This document shows positions 390 through 8,622 of a DNA stretch of 9,822 nt, one piece after another. The stretch is from a virus (Duplodnaviria > Heunggongvirae > Uroviricota > Caudoviricetes), in IMG/VR virus record IMGVR_UViG_3300011952_000030. One strand, 5' to 3'. A model generated the notes under the pieces. The model was not told where the DNA came from and did not search any database. It worked only from the letters and a program-made list of their open reading frames with translations. Every line of letters starts with the position of its first letter. The first letter of the stretch is position 1. Position numbers and translations under genes: made by a program.

Positions 390-1349
390 TTAATTCACCA
401 TCAGTCTTAGAGCCAGTTCTTCCGGATAGGGATCGAAGTAATTCTGTGTAAGCAAGTAATCATTAGGATACTCACCCAGATAATGCTTCAGCAGAGTCAA
501 CGGCGCAAGAAGAGGCAATGTGCCAAAGCGATAGTTAAGTATAACCTCGGTCAACTCTTTACGCTGGCGTGTACTTAAGTAATTACTAAAATACCCCTGT
601 ATATGCATCAGCACATTCGTGTGATTTTTACGTGATGCAGGTTTTCTGAGAATCGCCATCAGCTTATCACGATACACCTCAAAGTATGATTCAAGGTCCG
701 CCCACTCGTGTATTGCAGCCACAAATGGTCCCATATCTTTATAGCCTGCCTGACTATGCGCCAACAACTGAAGCTTATAACGACTATGAAAAGCTAATAA
801 CTCTCTTCTTGATAATTTCTCCTTGTAAAGGTGATTGAGCTCATGCAAAGCAAAAACTCTTTCAACAAAATTCTCACGAAGCACTGGATCATGTAATCGC
901 CCATCCTCTTCAACCGGTAGCCAGGAAAACTTTTCCATCAAAGTGCTCGTAAATAGTCCCACTCCATCTTTACGACCTCGATTACCATTTTCATCATAGA
1001 CACGCACGCGCTCCATGCCACAGCTGGGAGATTTAGCACAAACCACAAACCCCGATACATCCTTTAATTTGTGCATATAAGAACGACTAAACTCTGTCAT
1101 TCTCTCTGTCACATCCTCATTCTGGTCGTGGCTGAAACACATCCGTATATTTCCTTGCTTCGAGCGCACAAGACGTAGAGCAGGACGCGGAACTGGCAGC
1201 CCTATAGCCATTTCCGGACATACTGGTCTGAATGTTACCCATTCCACTAATTTGTCCATTAAAAAGTCAGCTCTTTTGTGACCACCATCAAAACGAACAG
1301 CAGAACCGGCCAAACAACCGCTGATTCCAATCACAGGTTTTTTTATCAT
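390..1349 (-). CDS. DUF523 (TudS-like, Cys-rich N-terminal half) fused to DUF1722 (YbgA-like C-terminal half), 319 aa
   Basis: ORF with ATG at 1349..1347 preceded by GGGGGAGGA Shine-Dalgarno. Cys motifs (GISGCLAG, VCPEMA, CAKSPSCGME) fit DUF523; the C-terminal half resembles YbgA. Family assignment is from memory, not a search. Confidence 0.75.
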   Translation of the reverse strand: MIKKPVIGISGCLAGSAVRFDGGHKRADFLMDKLVEWVTFRPVCPEMAIGLPVPRPALRLVRSKQGNIRMCFSHDQNEDVTERMTEFSRSYMHKLKDVSGFVVCAKSPSCGMERVRVYDENGNRGRKDGVGLFTSTLMEKFSWLPVEEDGRLHDPVLRENFVERVFALHELNHLYKEKLSRRELLAFHSRYKLQLLAHSQAGYKDMGPFVAAIHEWADLESYFEVYRDKLMAILRKPASRKNHTNVLMHIQGYFSNYLSTRQRKELTEVILNYRFGTLPLLAPLTLLKHYLGEYPNDYLLTQNYFDPYPEELALRLMVN

Positions 1350-1541
1350 ATCCTCCCCCTTGACTAATTCATTAACACATAAACTGTGTAGTGCACGGAA
1401 TAAATTGCCTTTCTGACGTCATCACTGACAATTTTTCTGTTATGGACTATTCCTAATATAGTATGAAAGTTCTTTAAGTGATCGGTCGTAATCATCTATC
1501 TTTCATACTTACTCTCAACTATCAAAAGTACAGGATTGATT
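1350..1541. promoter_or_regulatory. Divergent intergenic region between the YbgA-like gene and blc, with a 10-bp inverted repeat AGTATGAAAG (1461-1470) / CTTTCATACT (1500-1509) and a TGACGTCA palindrome (1426-1433)
   Basis: Repeats read directly in sequence; promoter function is inferred from position between divergent starts. Confidence 0.3.
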
Positions 1542-2066
1542 ATGAAGTTATGGCCTGTGTTGACTGGCATTGCACTCTCTTTCACTCTTATAGCATGTAA
1601 GGCCCCGACACCACCTAAAGGTGTGCAGCCGATTACAAATTTTGACGCCAACCGCTACCTCGGAAAATGGTATGAAATAGCTCGCCTCGAGAACCGGTTC
1701 GAACGTGGTCTGGAACAGGTCAGCGCTACTTATGGAAAACGGAACGACGGAGGGATTCGTGTACTTAACCGTGGATACGATCCAACGAAAAATAAATGGA
1801 GCGAGAGCGAAGGTAAAGCATACTTTACTGGAGATACTAAAACTGCAGCGTTGAAGGTTTCGTTTTTTGGCCCCTTCTATGGTGGCTATAATGTAATCAA
1901 ACTGGATGATGAGTATAAGTATGCTCTTGTTAGTGGTTCGAACAGAGAATACCTATGGATTCTGGCAAGGACCCCAACTATTCCAGATAAAGTAAAAGCA
2001 GACTATGTGCGAACCGCTCAAAAGTTGGGATTCAATGTCAATGAATTATTATGGGTTAAACAATAA
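1542..2066 (+). CDS. blc: Blc-family outer-membrane lipocalin lipoprotein (174 aa from ATG 1542; ORF track starts at TTG 1536)
   Basis: Signal peptide with lipobox L-I-A-C, then lipocalin motifs (NFDANRYLGKWYEIARL, FERGLE, KVSFFGPFYGGYNVI, YLWILARTP) closely parallel to E. coli Blc as recalled. AGGA lies 6 nt before ATG 1542. Divergent enough from chromosomal Blc to be a paralog. Confidence 0.8.
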   Translation: MKLWPVLTGIALSFTLIACKAPTPPKGVQPITNFDANRYLGKWYEIARLENRFERGLEQVSATYGKRNDGGIRVLNRGYDPTKNKWSESEGKAYFTGDTKTAALKVSFFGPFYGGYNVIKLDDEYKYALVSGSNREYLWILARTPTIPDKVKADYVRTAQKLGFNVNELLWVKQ

Positions 2067-2616: not shown

Positions 2617-3603
2617 TTAGGCCAGCACACCAATTGCCAGCGCGCGATCGATAAATCGAAAAATCAGCTCCAGTTGGGAGCCATACTTCTCTTCAAATGC
2701 CACGGTATCCGTATGCAACTCGTCGTGATGCTTTCTGCACAAAGGCAACACAAAGAGATCATGTGCTTTGGTTCCCATTCCGCCCTGCCCGTGACCAATC
2801 AGATGATGCGGATCGTCGGCTGGCATCCCGCAGCAAGCACACGGCTGTGTCTTAACCCAGCGTGTGTATTTCTCCTTAACCCAACGGTGACGTTTAGGCA
2901 GCTTCATGAAAGATTCCGGAGACTCTGGATCAACGGTGATGCTTACCACCGTCTTTTCCTGTGATGGGTTTTGTTGCTGGTGGGCGTGAGGCAACGGTGC
3001 AAGATTTTTTGTGCGCTGTTTCAATATGCTGGTGGCGGTCTGCTCTCCCGGTACGATGTCGCTTTCGCGGTACACCGAGCAGATTTTTTCCGCTGGTAAT
3101 CCCAGCGAGCGACGTAATACCGCTTCCGGTAGCGCGTCCGCCAGCTGATTGCGGACCGCCCACCAGGATAATTCAGCCAGAGATAATTCACGCTCCTTCG
3201 TACCGCTTATTGCGTGACCGATGACGTCAATCATCCATGCTGCCAGGTTTTGATGAGCAAGTTGCTCGAGTGATTCGGATGTCTGGTCACGCAGTTGGTT
3301 GTCGCAGTGCCAGCACAACACCATTGCGCCGGTACCATATCGGTGAATAACGGTTTCNNNNNNNNNNNNNNNNNNNNNNNNNNNNNNNNNNNNNNNNNNN
3401 NNNNNNNNNNNNNNNNNNNNNNNNNNNNNNNNNNNNNNNNNNNNNNNNNNNNNNNNNNNNNNNNNNNGCAGATTACGCATGCTTTTCGGTTCCGGCTCCA
3501 CCAGTACCCGGGTATTGTGGAATACCGGCATGGATTCACGGCCCGGCTTAACGACCACCAGCCCGAGTTCCGGTACCAGAACAGGTCGAAGTAATACCCG
3601 CAC
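2617..3603 (-). CDS. Nin-region protein with C-terminal HNH-like zinc-finger motif (DUF968 / YdfU-like); reading frame passes through a 110-nt N-run so the product is incomplete
   Basis: C-terminus [18 protein letters not shown]...[10 protein letters not shown] has the CxxC...HH...CxxHH spacing typical of HNH/DUF968 proteins found just upstream of Q in Qin-type prophages. ATG 3603 sits 1 nt after the upstream gene stop. Residues within 3358-3467 are unknown. Confidence 0.55.
3358..3467. other. Run of 110 N (masked or unresolved sequence) inside the DUF968-like gene
   Basis: Directly visible. The flanking reading frame is conserved across it. Confidence 0.95.
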
Positions 3604-3949: not shown

Positions 3950-4201
3950 TTATTCTTCTGCAAAAGCTGAAAAGCCTGCTTTTATTCCGATCTCTTTCAG
4001 TGCCTGTAATGAAGTGACAAACTCACCTTCGCGCAAGATAAATCCGTCTGTCACTCGACCATCCACAAAATTAATTAACGCAGCCCCATTCTTTCGCAAA
4101 CACATAATGCGGTAATGACTAACAAGATTTCCATTTTCAACGCACACAGCATAGAGGCCATCTTCACAAAAAATTTTACGCAGTTCTTCGATGTTCATCA
4201 T
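3950..4201 (-). CDS. Hypothetical small phage protein, 83 aa (occupies the position of rem in Qin-type prophages)
   Basis: ATG-ATG start at 4201; family not recognised. The rem comparison is positional only. Confidence 0.5.
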   Translation of the reverse strand: MMNIEELRKIFCEDGLYAVCVENGNLVSHYRIMCLRKNGAALINFVDGRVTDGFILREGEFVTSLQALKEIGIKAGFSAFAEE

Positions 4202-4417: not shown

Positions 4418-4573
4418 TTACTCCTCAGGTTCGTAAGCTGTGAAGACAGCGACCTCCGTCTGGCCGGTTCGGATTCGTACCTCGCAGAGGTCTTTCCTCG
4501 TTACCAGTGCCGTCACTATGACGGTTAAACAGATGACGATCAGGGCGATTAACATCGCCTTTTGCTGCTTCAT
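4418..4573 (-). CDS. hokD: Hok/Gef-family type I toxin (HokD/RelF-like), 51 aa from ATG 4573; the ORF track's longer 70-aa form is an in-frame upstream extension
   Basis: MKQQKAMLIALIVICLTVIVTALVTRKDLCEVRIRTGQTEVAVFTAYEPEE matches E. coli K-12 HokD as I recall it: single TM helix plus conserved Cys and C-terminal periplasmic tail. A perfect 9-bp stem-loop (4389-4410) lies just 3' of the stop. Confidence 0.85.
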   Translation of the reverse strand: MKQQKAMLIALIVICLTVIVTALVTRKDLCEVRIRTGQTEVAVFTAYEPEE

Positions 4574-4951
4574 AGCCTGCTTCTCCTTGCCTTTCGGCAC
4601 GTAAGAGGCTAACCTACATGTGTCTAGCATGAAATTGGCCTCAGATTAATGTTAAGCGTCTTGCAGGACGCGTAATGTTAACTGGGGCTTTTCTCTATCT
4701 GCCGTTGGTGTTCATGCCCGAGGCAGATAGCCTCAAGCACCCGCAGGCATTCTACTTAACTCCCGTTATCTCGCCAATATGAAATCAGTCAGAAAGGCGA
4801 TCCATAAGAATAACAGAACAATAAATTACCCGCACCACCGCAATAGTCAGCGAACATTTAAGAACCAACATGACAGCCTCCCACATTTAAAGTACGTATG
4901 TTCTAATAAATATAAATGGCATGATTCTGCGAAATACTTACATAAGCAATT

Positions 4952-4980
4952 CGCTCAAATCTGACTGTCAGTTTTGAGCG
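4952..4980 (-). terminator. Near-perfect 29-nt palindrome (CGCTCAAA t CTGAC t GTCAG t TTTGAGCG) about 40 nt downstream of the ATPase gene stop; candidate operon terminator or protein-binding site
   Basis: Read directly in sequence. Flanked by an A-rich tract on the plus side and a moderately U-rich tract on the minus side. Sits at the left edge of the AT-rich island. Confidence 0.4.
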
Positions 4981-5018
4981 AGAAAAATGATATCTACATA
5001 TCTATCAAATTACAAATC

Positions 5019-6743
5019 TTAAAGCCTAAAAAACTTATCGTCCTCCCCAAGCTCAAGCACAACACTATTATTGATGAAGTCTTGATCAATATTCTCCAAC
5101 TTGTCTTTAAGAATAGCCAATATATATTGACCATTAATCCCCGAAGCTATCTCGAATAACTTATTTATTTGATTTACATGAATTGCCTCAATTCCATCAT
5201 GAGCTATAAAACGTGGTGTTCTGGCTTCTAAAGACTCCTGGACAGATAAATAGGCAAAATCTAAAGAGGCAACCTGGGCTTTCTTTTTTCCTTCTCCCTG
5301 ATTACCTGATGTGAGCAAAGTTCCTAAAGGTTCAATGGTAAAAACGAAAGAACCGGAGGAATCTTTATAGGAAAGAATATATTCATCCTGATATAATTTT
5401 TTAGTATATAAAGAAAAATAGGAATTGAATAGCGCAAGACGTTTGTTAAAATCGTCAAGTTTAGATTTTAATCTATCTGACACATCATTAAACTTTGCTT
5501 TCAGTATATTAAAGTTGTTCTCCATCTCTTGGATTTGAAGTAGTCCAGCTTCAAGCCCACCTTTTTCTTCAAATAATGAATTTAATTTTTTTTGCATTAT
5601 TTGCAGGTCTGCCAATGTCCCATGCGAAGACAAACTCTTTAAAAGCTCTGATTCTTGAGTCAATAAGTTATTTAGTTCATCTTTATATTTGGAAATTTCT
5701 TGCAGCACTGGCTGCATTTGTTTTCTAATAAACTCAGCTTTTTTTACAAGCATTTTATTATGAAACGAAAGTAGCTCAGTAAACTCTTTGTTTAAGTTAC
5801 CTAACCGATCAGTTGCTTCTAAGTACAACTTCTGTAGATCTAGTGTATTTATATTTTCATGACTTTTTTCCAGATCTAGTATAGCCTTATCGTTTAATTT
5901 TTGCTTAAACTCCAAAGATGATAGTGTGATAGAAACTTCACTAATTTTAATTTTTAACTCATTTAACTCAGCAAGCATATCATTATAAGAGTCTGCCACT
6001 TGAAAATTAGAAATTAACTCTTCTTGTGCTATAATATCTCTATTTATAATTGCAATAGCTTGTTCCAAAGCATTCTTTGAGCGATGGCGAGTAATTACTT
6101 CATAATCGGATTTCGCCAGTTTATAGGCTTTAGTCACTGACTGTTTTTCATCCAGAATCTGTGAGTTACCGAACCCAAACATAAACAGATTTAACGTTTC
6201 ATATTGTGTATTAGAACCCATTTTTATCGTTTTTAATGCGTTCGACATCTTGTCATGCGTATTTCGAATAACACGTCCCATAATCTCTCGTATGGTCGGT
6301 TTTATCGCGGAATCAAGATATAATGTTCTTTTTAAAGCCTCGTTGAAATCTTTAGCCTTCGTATAGGACTCTTCATTTATTGAGGCTATAACCTTCGTTT
6401 TATTAGTCTCAGATGTAATTTTACGCTTAATTTTTATTACTGGTGCAGTTTTATTATTCAAATCTTTTGTGAGAATTAAACAAAACTCAATCTCGTTCTC
6501 TATCAAATAATTTTTTATAACCGAATTTTCTTTCTTGAATTCAGGATCGGTATAAAAATTCAGTTGTTCTGCTCCAAAACAAAAATCTAAAGCTCTTAAT
6601 ACAGTAGTTTTTCCCACACCATTTCCAGTTTGCTCTTTGCTGGAGGTGTTTCGGTCAATAATCAAATTAACGCCAATGTGAAATTCGATATCACGAATCA
6701 CTCCAAGCCTGAAAGAACTGACTATTAGCCGTTTCAAAAACAT
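5019..6743 (-). CDS. P-loop ABC/SMC-like ATPase with long central coiled coil, 574 aa; last gene of the AT-rich operon
   Basis: N-terminal head typical of SMC/RecF/OLD-type ABC ATPases, with Walker A GNGVGKTT (aa 40-47, nt 6603-6626). Lys/Glu/Leu-rich heptad region at about aa 230-470. Degenerate signature-like TSGNQGEG (aa 479-485) and Walker-B-like FIAHD (aa 512-516, nt 5196-5210). ATG 6743 overlaps the upstream gene by 10 nt. Confidence 0.8.
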   Translation of the reverse strand: MFLKRLIVSSFRLGVIRDIEFHIGVNLIIDRNTSSKEQTGNGVGKTTVLRALDFCFGAEQLNFYTDPEFKKENSVIKNYLIENEIEFCLILTKDLNNKTAPVIKIKRKITSETNKTKVIASINEESYTKAKDFNEALKRTLYLDSAIKPTIREIMGRVIRNTHDKMSNALKTIKMGSNTQYETLNLFMFGFGNSQILDEKQSVTKAYKLAKSDYEVITRHRSKNALEQAIAIINRDIIAQEELISNFQVADSYNDMLAELNELKIKISEVSITLSSLEFKQKLNDKAILDLEKSHENINTLDLQKLYLEATDRLGNLNKEFTELLSFHNKMLVKKAEFIRKQMQPVLQEISKYKDELNNLLTQESELLKSLSSHGTLADLQIMQKKLNSLFEEKGGLEAGLLQIQEMENNFNILKAKFNDVSDRLKSKLDDFNKRLALFNSYFSLYTKKLYQDEYILSYKDSSGSFVFTIEPLGTLLTSGNQGEGKKKAQVASLDFAYLSVQESLEARTPRFIAHDGIEAIHVNQINKLFEIASGINGQYILAILKDKLENIDQDFINNSVVLELGEDDKFFRL

Positions 6744-6970
6744 AATATCAAATCTCCATTTTCGTTAGCATCAACCAGGCCTAATAAATATAGCCAATTT
6801 AAAGTGTAAATATATTGCGTGAATGAAGAGTTGTTATTTTTAGATTTGAATTCATTATACAAGTCTATAATATCAACATACGAATAAGCATTTGAACTCA
6901 TGCATTCTAATAACCGAGCTCCCAGGTAATACAAGGTTTGGCTTGGTTTTGTTACATCAGAGATAATCAT
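6734..6970 (-). CDS. Small 78-aa protein, third gene of the AT-rich operon; possible adaptor or winged-helix-like component
   Basis: ATG 6970 overlaps the upstream stop in an ATGA arrangement; its own stop overlaps the ATPase start. Codon usage matches the neighbours. No motif recognised. Confidence 0.6.
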   Translation of the reverse strand: MIISDVTKPSQTLYYLGARLLECMSSNAYSYVDIIDLYNEFKSKNNNSSFTQYIYTLNWLYLLGLVDANENGDLILCF

Positions 6971-7563
6971 ATTGGTTTTTCCAGAATCTTACACTCTACG
7001 AATGCATGATAAACGATAAAAGAAGCATGGCATTCGATTTCTTCGCTTGTGTAATTCATTGCCATAAGAGAATTTAAGCATTTCTTAATGATGTGCTCTA
7101 TTACACTGTCTATTATCCAATCTGCAAACTCTCTTACCAATTGAATCTTTAAATTATTCCGTTCCTGAGCATCCTTGCAGCTCTTATACGCTTCTCTATG
7201 TTTAAGCAATAAATCTCCTTGACAATCAAGATATCGTGAATTGATGCTTTTCAGTGCCGTTTCCTTAGCAGTAGGCATACTTTCATTTAATGTTTCATAC
7301 GCTTTATCTATCATCGAAGAATATAGATAGAACCCTTCAATACGTTCTCTATGTTTTATAACATCATTGAAGTCTATTTTATTCTCAATATCATATGGCT
7401 CGTAGTCATTGTTTGTACGAGGATCAATAACATTCGAATCAACTAAAATACCAACAAGATCCATAAAAATCGATGGAGACTTTATAATATCAACAGAGTT
7501 AGAATCGACAACCACCTGCACATTACGTGAGTAATTCCCTGACCTTTGAGTAACACCAACCAT
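6967..7563 (-). CDS. 198-aa soluble protein of unknown function, second gene of the AT-rich operon
   Basis: ATG 7563 lies 2 nt after the upstream TGA; its stop overlaps the next ATG. Acidic, with five Cys but no recognisable nuclease or protease motif. Confidence 0.65.
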   Translation of the reverse strand: MVGVTQRSGNYSRNVQVVVDSNSVDIIKSPSIFMDLVGILVDSNVIDPRTNNDYEPYDIENKIDFNDVIKHRERIEGFYLYSSMIDKAYETLNESMPTAKETALKSINSRYLDCQGDLLLKHREAYKSCKDAQERNNLKIQLVREFADWIIDSVIEHIIKKCLNSLMAMNYTSEEIECHASFIVYHAFVECKILEKPI

Positions 7564-7565
7564 GA

Positions 7566-7811
7566 TCAGCCTCGCTTGTTTTCATTATTTCCAAAAACGA
7601 CCGTCTGATTATTTTTTGAATGGCTACCGCTTTTTTGAATTATTGTATGCCCTGAACTTTTTTTATTAACAATAAATGTACCTAAAAATGTTACAAGAAA
7701 GCTACCAGAAGTGAACATCAATGGCACACTATTGAAGTGATATGCAGCAAAGCCAGCGCAAGCAACGAATGTCAAAGAAAATATTCTAATCATAATTCGG
7801 ATCATAGCCAC
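7566..7811 (-). CDS. Small two-TM membrane protein (81 aa from GTG 7811, or 79 aa from ATG 7805), first gene of the AT-rich operon
   Basis: Two hydrophobic helices (about aa 8-27 and 30-48) followed by a polar Lys/Ser/Asn-rich tail. AGGA lies 8 nt upstream of ATG 7805. Confidence 0.55.
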   Translation of the reverse strand: MAMIRIMIRIFSLTFVACAGFAAYHFNSVPLMFTSGSFLVTFLGTFIVNKKSSGHTIIQKSGSHSKNNQTVVFGNNENKRG

Positions 7812-7899
7812 ATCCTGTAAGTACTGTTGTCATCTTTTAGTGATTCTTGAATCCCATACTATACAAAAGCTTATCCATCTTTTGTACAAGCTTCCGCTT

Positions 7900-7990
7900 T
7901 GAAAGTGACATTATAAAGTAACTACAACTTAGAGTGCATCCCCCTAAATATCTCCGATGGTGATAGTTGCTGGCTACAACTTACTTCCAT
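7900..7990 (-). promoter_or_regulatory. Putative promoter/operator of the AT-rich operon: consensus -10 TATAAT (minus strand, plus coordinates 7915..7910) and a perfect 10-bp direct repeat CTACAACTTA at 7922-7931 and 7974-7983
   Basis: Hexamer and repeats read directly. The -35 is weak (TGCACT), so activity is uncertain. The repeats are spaced 52 bp apart, about five helical turns. Confidence 0.3.
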
Positions 7991-8028
7991 AACCAACTAA
8001 CTGGCTTGCTCTGCGTTAATTAGTGCAT

Positions 8029-8085
8029 NNNNNNNNNNNNNNNNNNNNNNNNNNNNNNNNNNNNNNNNNNNNNNNNNNNNNNNNN
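8029..8085. other. Run of 57 N (masked or unresolved sequence) upstream of the AT-rich operon
   Basis: Directly visible. Flanked by ...TAGTGCAT and TGCATAGG... Confidence 0.95.
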
Positions 8086-8190
8086 TGCATAGGAATGTCA
8101 GCATTATCCGCTCTTGGCACAAACCAAACGACCACGCTAGCGCTAATCTTGTGCCACGAAAATGTCAATTCACATCTGAACTAATGCTCT

Positions 8191-8622
8191 TTAATCTCGT
8201 CGCTTCAATAGATATCGAACATTTCCCTGATAGAATGCGAGTATACGCTGCATAACTTCAGTCTTCCGGCACTCGCGACAGATTATGTTTAGGCGACTGT
8301 CGTAGCGGCGTATTTCTCCGTCAGGTAATGACCAGATAAGGTCCGGATCAACCACAGCAGGTTTCTTCACCTTTGCCCTCGAGAGTTTTTTGCGGGCGTG
8401 TTGCCAGTCCTTACGCGCCTGTTCAGACGGGAATAACCCGTAGCCGGAGTTGTATACATCGCCACTGGCTACCAGCTCTCTGGCAAGAACGCTCATCAGA
8501 TATCTAGTCGCACCTGTTTTAGCTTCCAGTTGCCGTAACGTCTCACGACCGCTCTGGCGCACGAGTTCCACCACCTGCCCTTTAATTTTTTCCCGCTCTT
8601 CTTGTGTAAAAACTTTTGCCAC
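8191..8622 (-). CDS. Hypothetical phage protein, 143 aa, immediately downstream of the replication initiator; possible helix-turn-helix
   Basis: GTG start at 8622 with a strong AAGGGGGA Shine-Dalgarno 5 nt upstream. Basic protein; a possible HTH (TLRQLEAKTGATRYLMSVLAREL). Family not recognised. Confidence 0.55.
   Translation of the reverse strand: MAKVFTQEEREKIKGQVVELVRQSGRETLRQLEAKTGATRYLMSVLARELVASGDVYNSGYGLFPSEQARKDWQHARKKLSRAKVKKPAVVDPDLIWSLPDGEIRRYDSRLNIICRECRKTEVMQRILAFYQGNVRYLLKRRD

Follow-up and report, generated by a model that had tools for sequence, protein, structure and literature searches.

We analyzed a stretch of viral DNA of 9,822 nucleotides (nt) from the IMG/VR record IMGVR_UViG_3300011952_000030; the whole stretch is called the window below. 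Its longest open reading frame (ORF), located on the minus strand at 5019–6743, encodes a protein of 574 amino acids (aa), an SMC/Rad50-like ATP-binding cassette (ABC) ATPase of the DUF2326 family and the equivalent of LmuB. We think it probable that this protein serves as the LmuB-type sensor ATPase in an abortive-infection module of the ABC-three component (ABC-3C) type within the Lamassu superfamily, that the module is cargo of a Qin-like Escherichia coli prophage, and that it works by the mechanism proposed at the end of this text. The ATP-binding site of the protein deviates from the canonical motifs, and these deviations are conserved family traits, not products of chance or decay. More tentatively, we propose that here a Lamassu-type SMC-like sensor kills by amyloid templating of the tail of a tiny membrane protein, with a catalytic site rebuilt around D-x-x-E; we hold this to be possible, though rather less than probable.

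Predicted fold of the ATPase

The AlphaFold2 (AF2) model of the ATPase was built on 57 homologues and had a mean predicted local distance difference test (pLDDT) score of 84.7. It consisted of an N-terminal head half, folded-back helices at aa 194–451 and a C-terminal head half, which is the arrangement of SMC/Rad50-like ABC ATPases, where a coiled-coil insertion splits the head in two. The initial annotation of this DNA, made from the sequence, had described a coiled coil of about 240 residues between the head halves. We found the antiparallel coiled coil in this place (5391–6164, minus strand, as delimited by the AF2 secondary structure), but it was approximately 258 residues long, with an apex near aa 315–320 and helix breaks at 246–251 and 373–377. 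No CxxC zinc hook was present in the sequence of this region. The fold of the head together with the coiled coil is nearest to the solved LmuB structures.

In the C-terminal head, the residues FIAHD formed a strand (512–516), preceded by helix 484–505 and followed by a loop, helix 523–535 and strand 539–545. This order matches the canonical succession of signature helix, Walker B, D-loop and H-loop strand, and therefore FIAHD is Walker B, as had been proposed earlier. The stretch TSGNQGEG (aa 478–485, 5289–5312) corresponded to the loop and the N-terminus of helix 484–505, where the ABC signature sits.

Between the first core strand and the P-loop the model contained an insertion of about nine residues with low confidence (aa 30–38, 6630–6656; pLDDT below 50 at 37–40). 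In canonical ABC ATPases the first core strand leads directly into the P-loop. The strand itself reads NLIID; its D30 was the same in all 57 aligned sequences, and 42% of relatives had D-E there. We also observed a difference in the choice of the start codon: the cluster representative P0001 (560 aa, 352 members) begins 14 codons later, which would place the start at 6701 and not at 6743. The 574-aa start is that of RefSeq and of most ATPase homologues. It is probably the right one, since the longer form takes in the conserved first beta-strand (M-F-L-K-x-L).

Motifs of the ATP-binding site

Conservation of the motifs was tabulated in 57 relatives and then in 259 full-length relatives; the counts given below come from the larger set. 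All three stretches quoted in the initial annotation, GNGVGKTT (aa 40–47, 6603–6626), TSGNQGEG and FIAHD-G, were present where it had placed them, on the minus strand.

The Walker A motif or P-loop, defined by sequence and conservation, reads T-GNGVGKTT and spans aa 39–47 (6603–6629). It had been called canonical. This was correct for the GK-T-T core and for N41, the Asn of SMC/Rad50-type proteins, but not for the position six residues before the Lys: the family motif is [TS]GNxVGKTT, position 39 is T or S and never G or A, so that the motif comes close to the strict pattern [AG]x4GK[ST] without matching it in full. Residues G44, K45, T46, T47, N41 and D516 were 97–100% conserved across phyla.

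Walker B and the loop after it, FIAHD-G-I-E, occupy aa 512–519 (5187–5210), as supported by sequence, AF2 and conservation. FIAHDG (aa 512–517) covers 5193–5210 and departs from the canonical hhhhD-E, with G517 (5193–5195) directly after the Asp. The claim that the catalytic Glu is replaced by Gly was thus borne out. D516 was conserved at 99%, and the residue that follows it was Q in 87 relatives, K in 69, G in 58, R in 21, S in 17 and E in only 3. In contrast to this free variation at +1, E519, located at +3 from the Walker B Asp, was kept in 258 of the 259 sequences. The initial annotation had overlooked this near-invariant Glu, which could still support hydrolysis. We also looked for a conventional D-E Walker B elsewhere in the C-terminal head, and no D-E dipeptide was conserved across it (the highest frequency was 14%). 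Two candidates for a hidden canonical motif, D453-E454 and E567-D568-D569, were rejected; neither is conserved, nor is either preceded by a suitably placed hydrophobic core strand.

The signature region, assigned from AF2 and conservation, is SGNQGEGKKK (aa 479–488, 5280–5309). Its family consensus is x-G-N-x-[GS]-x-G-K-K-K, in which neither LSGGQ/E nor a conserved Ser-Gly-Gly can be recognized. TSGNQGEG had been placed at the site of the ABC signature; the AF2 model agrees with the region, but the residues equivalent to LSGGQ are more likely G483-E484-G485-K486 than S479-G480, judging from the model and from the spacing relative to E. coli SbcC. We favor 483–486 because helix 484–505 begins there, 256/259 sequences have G or S at position 483, and G485 never varies, whereas conservation is lacking at S479.

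The position of the H-loop, K-D-K at aa 546–548 (5100–5108), was derived from spacing in a manual alignment with E. coli SbcC. In this register position 546 was K or R in 190/259 relatives and a conserved His was absent. The probable Q-loop position, assigned from motif context, is aa 153 (6285–6287); it was Q in 207 relatives and E in 34, the window ATPase being among the latter. We considered compensation of G517 by E153 and rejected it, since only 17 of the 58 sequences with G517 have E153, so that there is no clean coupling.

Composition and classification of the gene module

Four genes lie tightly packed on the minus strand, the ATPase gene being the last. Together they form an island with a G+C content of 33%, compared with approximately 43–54% in the flanking prophage DNA. 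Directly upstream lies a gene for a 78-aa protein (6734–6970), identified as the MC6 middle component, equivalent to LmuC, by Pfam (E = 1.6e-13) and by its RefSeq annotation. This gene overlaps the start of the ATPase gene by 10 nt and the stop of the next gene by 4 nt. The latter (6967–7563) encodes a 198-aa CTD10 protein in the place of the LmuA effector/adaptor (Pfam CTD10, E = 1.6e-10, aa 36–195). The CTD10 protein has no enzymatic N-terminal domain; in the AF2 model (pLDDT 77.6) aa 1–22 were disordered (below 50) and the remainder formed a helical bundle. The first gene of the module (7566–7811), recognized as an ORF and by hydropathy, encodes a protein of 81 aa (79 aa in RefSeq) with predicted transmembrane (TM) helices at approximately aa 4–24 and 29–49. 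This small protein is presumed to be a membrane-damaging effector. It matched no Pfam family above threshold (Hol_Tox was found at E = 0.014) and did not show the features of a Bell/HeLo-type effector.

Pfam thus placed DUF2326, MC6 and CTD10 on three genes in a row, each overlapping the next, in exact agreement with the DUF2326-MC6-CTD10 type of ABC-3C systems (Krishnan, Burroughs, Iyer and Aravind 2020; PADLOC PDC-M68), to which the window system belongs. RefSeq uses the labels 'ABC-three component system protein', 'middle component 6' and 'DUF2326 domain-containing protein'. In PADLOC the ATPase matched PDC-M68B at E = 1.3e-41, while the curated LmuB models matched weakly (E = 6e-4 and 0.03) and in the N-terminal part. 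On these profile matches, strong for PDC-M68B and weak for LmuB, the system is classified as a sister type within ABC-3C and not as Lamassu in the narrow sense of PADLOC. A search of NCBIfam returned nothing, the PHROGs match of the ATPase was to a family of unknown function, and the isolated C-terminal head gave DUF2326 as its only Pfam match. Scanning 4650–8250 for promoters and terminators gave counts no different from those of shuffled sequence.

Relatives and architecture of their loci

A word-indexed search yielded 427 relatives of the ATPase, and an exhaustive search with the DUF2326 profile yielded 2513 representatives of clusters at 50% identity. The full-length relatives share these motif variants and their gene neighbors, and they span many bacterial phyla and one archaeal metagenome-assembled genome. 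We compared 86 loci, of which 80 came from species-representative genomes and the others had been collected earlier. An ORF of the size of MC6 was present directly upstream of the ATPase gene in all 86, and an ORF of the size of CTD10 was next upstream in 81. The conserved gene order is therefore effector/adaptor (CTD10), middle component (MC6) and ATPase.

The CTD10 proteins were of two kinds. Approximately 60 were long (264–325 aa), and 59 of 60 carried an N-terminal Cys/His pattern resembling HNH nucleases; no TM ORF was found upstream in the HNH-CTD10 loci (L002, L007, L008 and about 57 others of L011–L090). In most relatives this HNH-bearing protein measured 264–290 aa. Approximately 20 were short (183–253 aa) and had no enzymatic domain. 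An ORF of 45–111 aa preceded every intact short CTD10 gene, and nearly all of these ORFs encoded one or two N-terminal hydrophobic helices. The ATPases differed along the same line: Walker B was D-Q, as in LmuB, in 60 of 61 ATPases linked to HNH, and those linked to TM proteins had G, R, K, S or Q at +1. All 25 loci shown without an HNH-CTD10 partner had Glu at +3.

The neighboring genes in L009 (6087–6953), L004 (6928–8772), L005 (9157–9710) and L008 (1–1960) included an AbiEii toxin, an Rhs/endonuclease with its immunity gene, CcdAB, a Tn7-like TnsA and integrases. Such conflict-related and mobile neighbors are consistent with a defense-island lifestyle.

Matching motifs in the membrane protein and the CTD10 protein

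We observed that the C-terminal tail of the TM protein resembles the N-terminus of the neighboring CTD10 protein. The tail motif IIQKSGSHSKNNQTVVFGNN covers aa 57–76 (7584–7643, minus strand), and the CTD10 motif VTQRSGNYSRNVQVVVDSNS covers aa 4–23 (7495–7554, minus strand). In the window pair QKSGSHSKNNQTVVFGNN of the tail stands against QRSGNYSRNVQVVVDSN of the CTD10 protein; the L028 pair has QEQNIGKSGTGYQAGETININ against KQEQNIGKNGTGYQAERINIYN, and the L090 pair has KKTIKISVNGDDNTVSGRDI against NNIKIDVNGNTNTIAGRDI. The local-alignment score of the window pair was 48, compared with 20.2 +/- 3.8 for shuffled sequences (z = 7.3), and none of 300 shuffles reached 48.

In most short-CTD10 systems the last approximately 20 residues of the upstream ORF resembled the first approximately 25 of the CTD10 protein. 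For 13 of the 19 systems scored, the window included, the cognate pair scored above every one of 300 shuffles; L010, scored on the last 40 residues, matched poorly. The cognate partner was usually the best-scoring one, and the motif sequence varied from system to system. A matching motif of about 20 aa was also seen in L004, L009–L018, L022, L028, L046, L064 and L090. The arrangement and the match within pairs were found in Enterobacterales, Acinetobacter, Bacteroidota, Balneolaceae, Bdellovibrionales and Myxococcus. G, N, Q, S and T are abundant in the motifs, whose hydrophobic residues alternate, some pairs (L028, L022, L009) have a G-phi-Q-phi-G core (GTGYQAG), and the motif region of the CTD10 protein was disordered in the AF2 monomer.

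A motif shared between the C-terminus of an effector and the N-terminus of a sensor-side protein, encoded by adjacent genes, is the pattern of amyloid-signaling pairs, and the window pair has it. The RHIM, PP and BASS3 motif types share the G-phi-Q-phi-G core, and Bell/NLR pairs carry BASS motifs. For the E. coli prophage pair Bab/Agp it has been validated experimentally that amyloid templating from the sensor N-terminus to the C-terminus of the membrane effector drives abortive infection. Like these Bab/Agp (BASS11) and Bell/NLR pairs, the window system has adjacent genes, a C-terminal motif in a small membrane-targeting protein and an N-terminal motif on the sensor side, and like Bab/Agp it would serve E. 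coli prophage defense. The sensors differ. In the window it would be an ABC-3C/Lamassu-type ATPase acting through a CTD10 adaptor, whereas Bab/Agp and Bell use a TPR-GreA/B-C-PIN or an NLR protein. The effectors differ as well: that of the window type is predicted to have one or two TM helices, and similarity to Bell or 'Babybell' was not seen. In the literature searched we found no paper linking amyloid motifs with Lamassu or ABC-3C. The motif match, judged by sequence comparison, appears to be new and was less expected than the loss of the catalytic Glu.

The shared motif could have another meaning at the effector step: it could be a simple docking element (for example, beta-strand pairing that at rest would hold the adaptor on the membrane protein) or a relic of duplication or splitting at the gene boundary. 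The evidence for templating is a sequence match with predicted disorder, which such explanations would accommodate, and the two motifs lie approximately 25 residues apart across an intergenic gap of 2 nt, as a tandem duplication would leave them. On the other hand, the match within pairs persists across distant taxa while the motif itself changes, which points to co-variation and not to a recent relic. Also, the layout is identical to that of the validated Bab/Agp and Bell/NLR pairs, and the G/N/Q/S/T-rich composition, the alternating hydrophobics and the G-phi-Q-phi-G core of some pairs speak for amyloid templating. We regard docking or a relic as doubtful, though a substantial possibility for this one step.

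Comparison with Lamassu and the question of catalytic competence

Three structure papers on Lamassu from 2025 describe a natural Walker B variant without the catalytic Glu in LmuB. In Salmonella LmuB the Walker B Glu is changed to Gln; the complex hydrolyzed approximately 1 ATP per minute with DNA and had no ATPase activity alone. The Vibrio and Bacillus complexes had moderate, Smc-ScpAB-like ATPase activity despite 'naturally deviant' D-Q motifs. Short Lamassu systems have Walker B of the form hhhhD[Q/S/T/E], and DdmC was described with 'an atypical Walker B'. Walker A mutants of LmuB lost function. One of the structure papers leaves open whether activation needs ATP hydrolysis or just ATP binding.

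The window ATPase shares the absence of the catalytic Glu from Walker B with LmuB/DdmC of type II or 'short' Lamassu (PDB 9uxl, 9hqu). The differences concern the C-terminal head, which is DUF2326 in the window protein and DUF3732 in the solved LmuB chains, and the +1 residue, which is Gly in the former and Gln in LmuB. SalEnt LmuB retains a functional signature Ser (S536), whereas the window family lacks a conserved Ser at 479. The window protein also has no zinc hook. The DUF2326 traits that the Lamassu papers examined do not report for LmuB are the invariant +3 Glu, the signature [GS]xGKK and K/R in place of the H-loop His. What goes beyond the known facts on LmuB is therefore the Gly variant, the drift of +1 in one branch, the invariant +3 Glu and the altered signature and H-loop; some of these may already be contained in the paper that defined ABC-3C.

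The loss of the catalytic Glu is thus not peculiar to the window protein. It is family-wide and has already been described for LmuB and ABC-3C ATPases. For this reason the G517E substitution suggested in the initial annotation would restore a residue found in merely 3/259 relatives. The same annotation had proposed a slowly hydrolyzing nucleotide switch or sensor. By analogy with Lamassu, where it has a precedent, this idea is partly supported; it is reasonable and not new.

A different explanation is that the ATPase is catalytically competent, with E519 at +3 in place of the canonical Glu and a normal SMC-like rate, so that the loss of Glu would be apparent only. E519 is as constant as K45 and D516 while +1 varies freely, and its invariance, as a pattern among aligned sequences, argues for an essential role. 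The moderate activity measured for LmuB complexes with D-Q would also fit a competent site. Against this, E519 falls in the D-loop region and not at the strand end in our manual alignment, and the signature and H-loop are likewise degenerate, which suggests that the site is weakened overall. We know of no ABC ATPase with a catalytic base at +3, which counts against E519 in this role. Overall we consider full competence fairly unlikely.

The remaining explanations fared considerably worse. The protein could be a housekeeping or phage DNA-repair paralogue of Rad50/SbcC and not an immune sensor. However, Rad50, SbcC and SMC proteins have LSGGE, D-E, the H-loop His, a long hooked or hinged coiled coil and an Mre11/SbcD or kleisin partner, none of which occurs in the window system. 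The partners are MC6 and CTD10 with HNH or TM effectors in place of a nuclease of the Mre11/SbcD type, the coiled coil is short and hookless, the distribution is sporadic, and AbiEii, integrases and transposases are among the neighboring genes of relatives; a repair function is very unlikely.

A pseudo-ATPase scaffold that has lost nucleotide binding would account for deviations in four motifs of the nucleotide site (the first Walker A Gly, the signature, Walker B +1 and the H-loop), but the core Walker residues are nearly invariant and Q or E stands at the Q-loop in 241/259 relatives, a pattern that points to selection for Mg-ATP binding. Since Walker A mutants also abolish function in LmuB, we find the scaffold highly improbable.

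That the deviations mark a dead prophage gene in decay, or are a chance reading in an AT-rich ORF, has next to no likelihood and is already refuted by conservation. The prophage that carries the module is Qin-like and defective, and the module is rich in A+T; but the ORF is intact at 574 aa, nearly identical copies are carried by other E. coli strains, relatives across phyla keep the motif variants and the neighbors, and the DUF2326 profile finds 2513 cluster representatives.

Prophage setting of the island

Among 5426 complete E. coli genomes, 17 carried the 3-kb module, and in 15 of these it was at least 99% identical. The host of the island is a Qin-like lambdoid prophage, in which it lies between the genes for replication and hokD/rem/ydfU/Q. 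A search of a phage genome collection gave no DNA match to the island.

In the window the island is flanked by genes for the hokD toxin (4418–4630), rem (3950–4201) and antiterminator Q (2222–2614), all on the minus strand; the defense module sits between the prophage replication and nin/Q regions. Downstream of the Q gene we observed a YbgA-family gene (390–1349, minus strand) and a lipocalin (Blc-like) gene (1536–2066, plus strand). The region downstream of Q is the classic cargo ('moron') position in lambdoid prophages. In strain WP2-W18-ESBL-08 the YbgA-family and lipocalin genes lie between Q and the lysis cassette. Two runs of N are masked in the window: one of 110 bases (3358–3467) breaks a ydfU/DUF968-like ORF, and one of 57 bases (8029–8085) falls between the TM gene and a DUF977 gene.

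A model for the module in infected cells

Several points weigh against reading the window protein as the sensor of such a module. The family profile compared with all PDB sequences (E up to 10) returned coiled-coil noise and no match in the head domain. When the family alignments of the two head halves were compared with E. coli SbcC by hhalign, 14 columns at the P-loop were all that aligned in the N-terminal half, and the C-terminal half gave nothing; therefore mapping of residues to a canonical protein from sequence is impossible, and our assignments of signature, H-loop and Q-loop are modeled ones, based on the AF2 secondary structure and manual SbcC spacing. PADLOC carries PDC-M68 as a candidate system only, and the literature searched contained no biochemical or phage-challenge data on any DUF2326/MC6/CTD10 system. 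The near-invariant E519 might be a displaced catalytic base, in which case hydrolysis need not be slow. The signal that would trigger the window sensor is taken from the analogy with Lamassu, amyloid formation by the shared motif is a prediction from its sequence, and the motif match was weak in four related loci (L070, L087–L089).

In Lamassu, LmuA is held by two LmuB and LmuC, and once released it tetramerizes via its C-terminal domain. By analogy, two ATPase protomers and MC6 would sequester the CTD10 protein. Recognition of a DNA structure of phage origin (DNA ends, for example), combined with engagement of the heads driven by ATP, would open the complex and free the CTD10 protein. The detuned catalytic site would slow hydrolysis and make the ATP-bound state long-lived, with the nucleotide acting as a switch or timer and not as fuel of a motor. 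For the steps that follow we suggest that the freed CTD10 protein may oligomerize and cluster its disordered N-terminal motifs, which could then template the matching C-terminal motif of the neighboring two-TM protein. The templated protein would damage the membrane and kill the infected cell.

In summary, the finding of a lost catalytic Glu mostly rediscovers a known trait: Lamassu/ABC-3C ATPases are without this residue and act as switches, not motors. The family also offers a clean natural experiment, as the residue at +1 is free to change (Q, K, G, R or S) but the Glu at +3 stays constant. If the proposed mechanism is true, it would join the effector-release switch of SMC-like ATPases with prion-like signaling of the NLR/HET-S and Bab/Agp kind, which have hitherto been described separately. 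If confirmed, amyloid signaling would reach beyond NLR and TGP sensors, and the matching motifs would constitute a compact, portable module for coupling a sensor to an effector.

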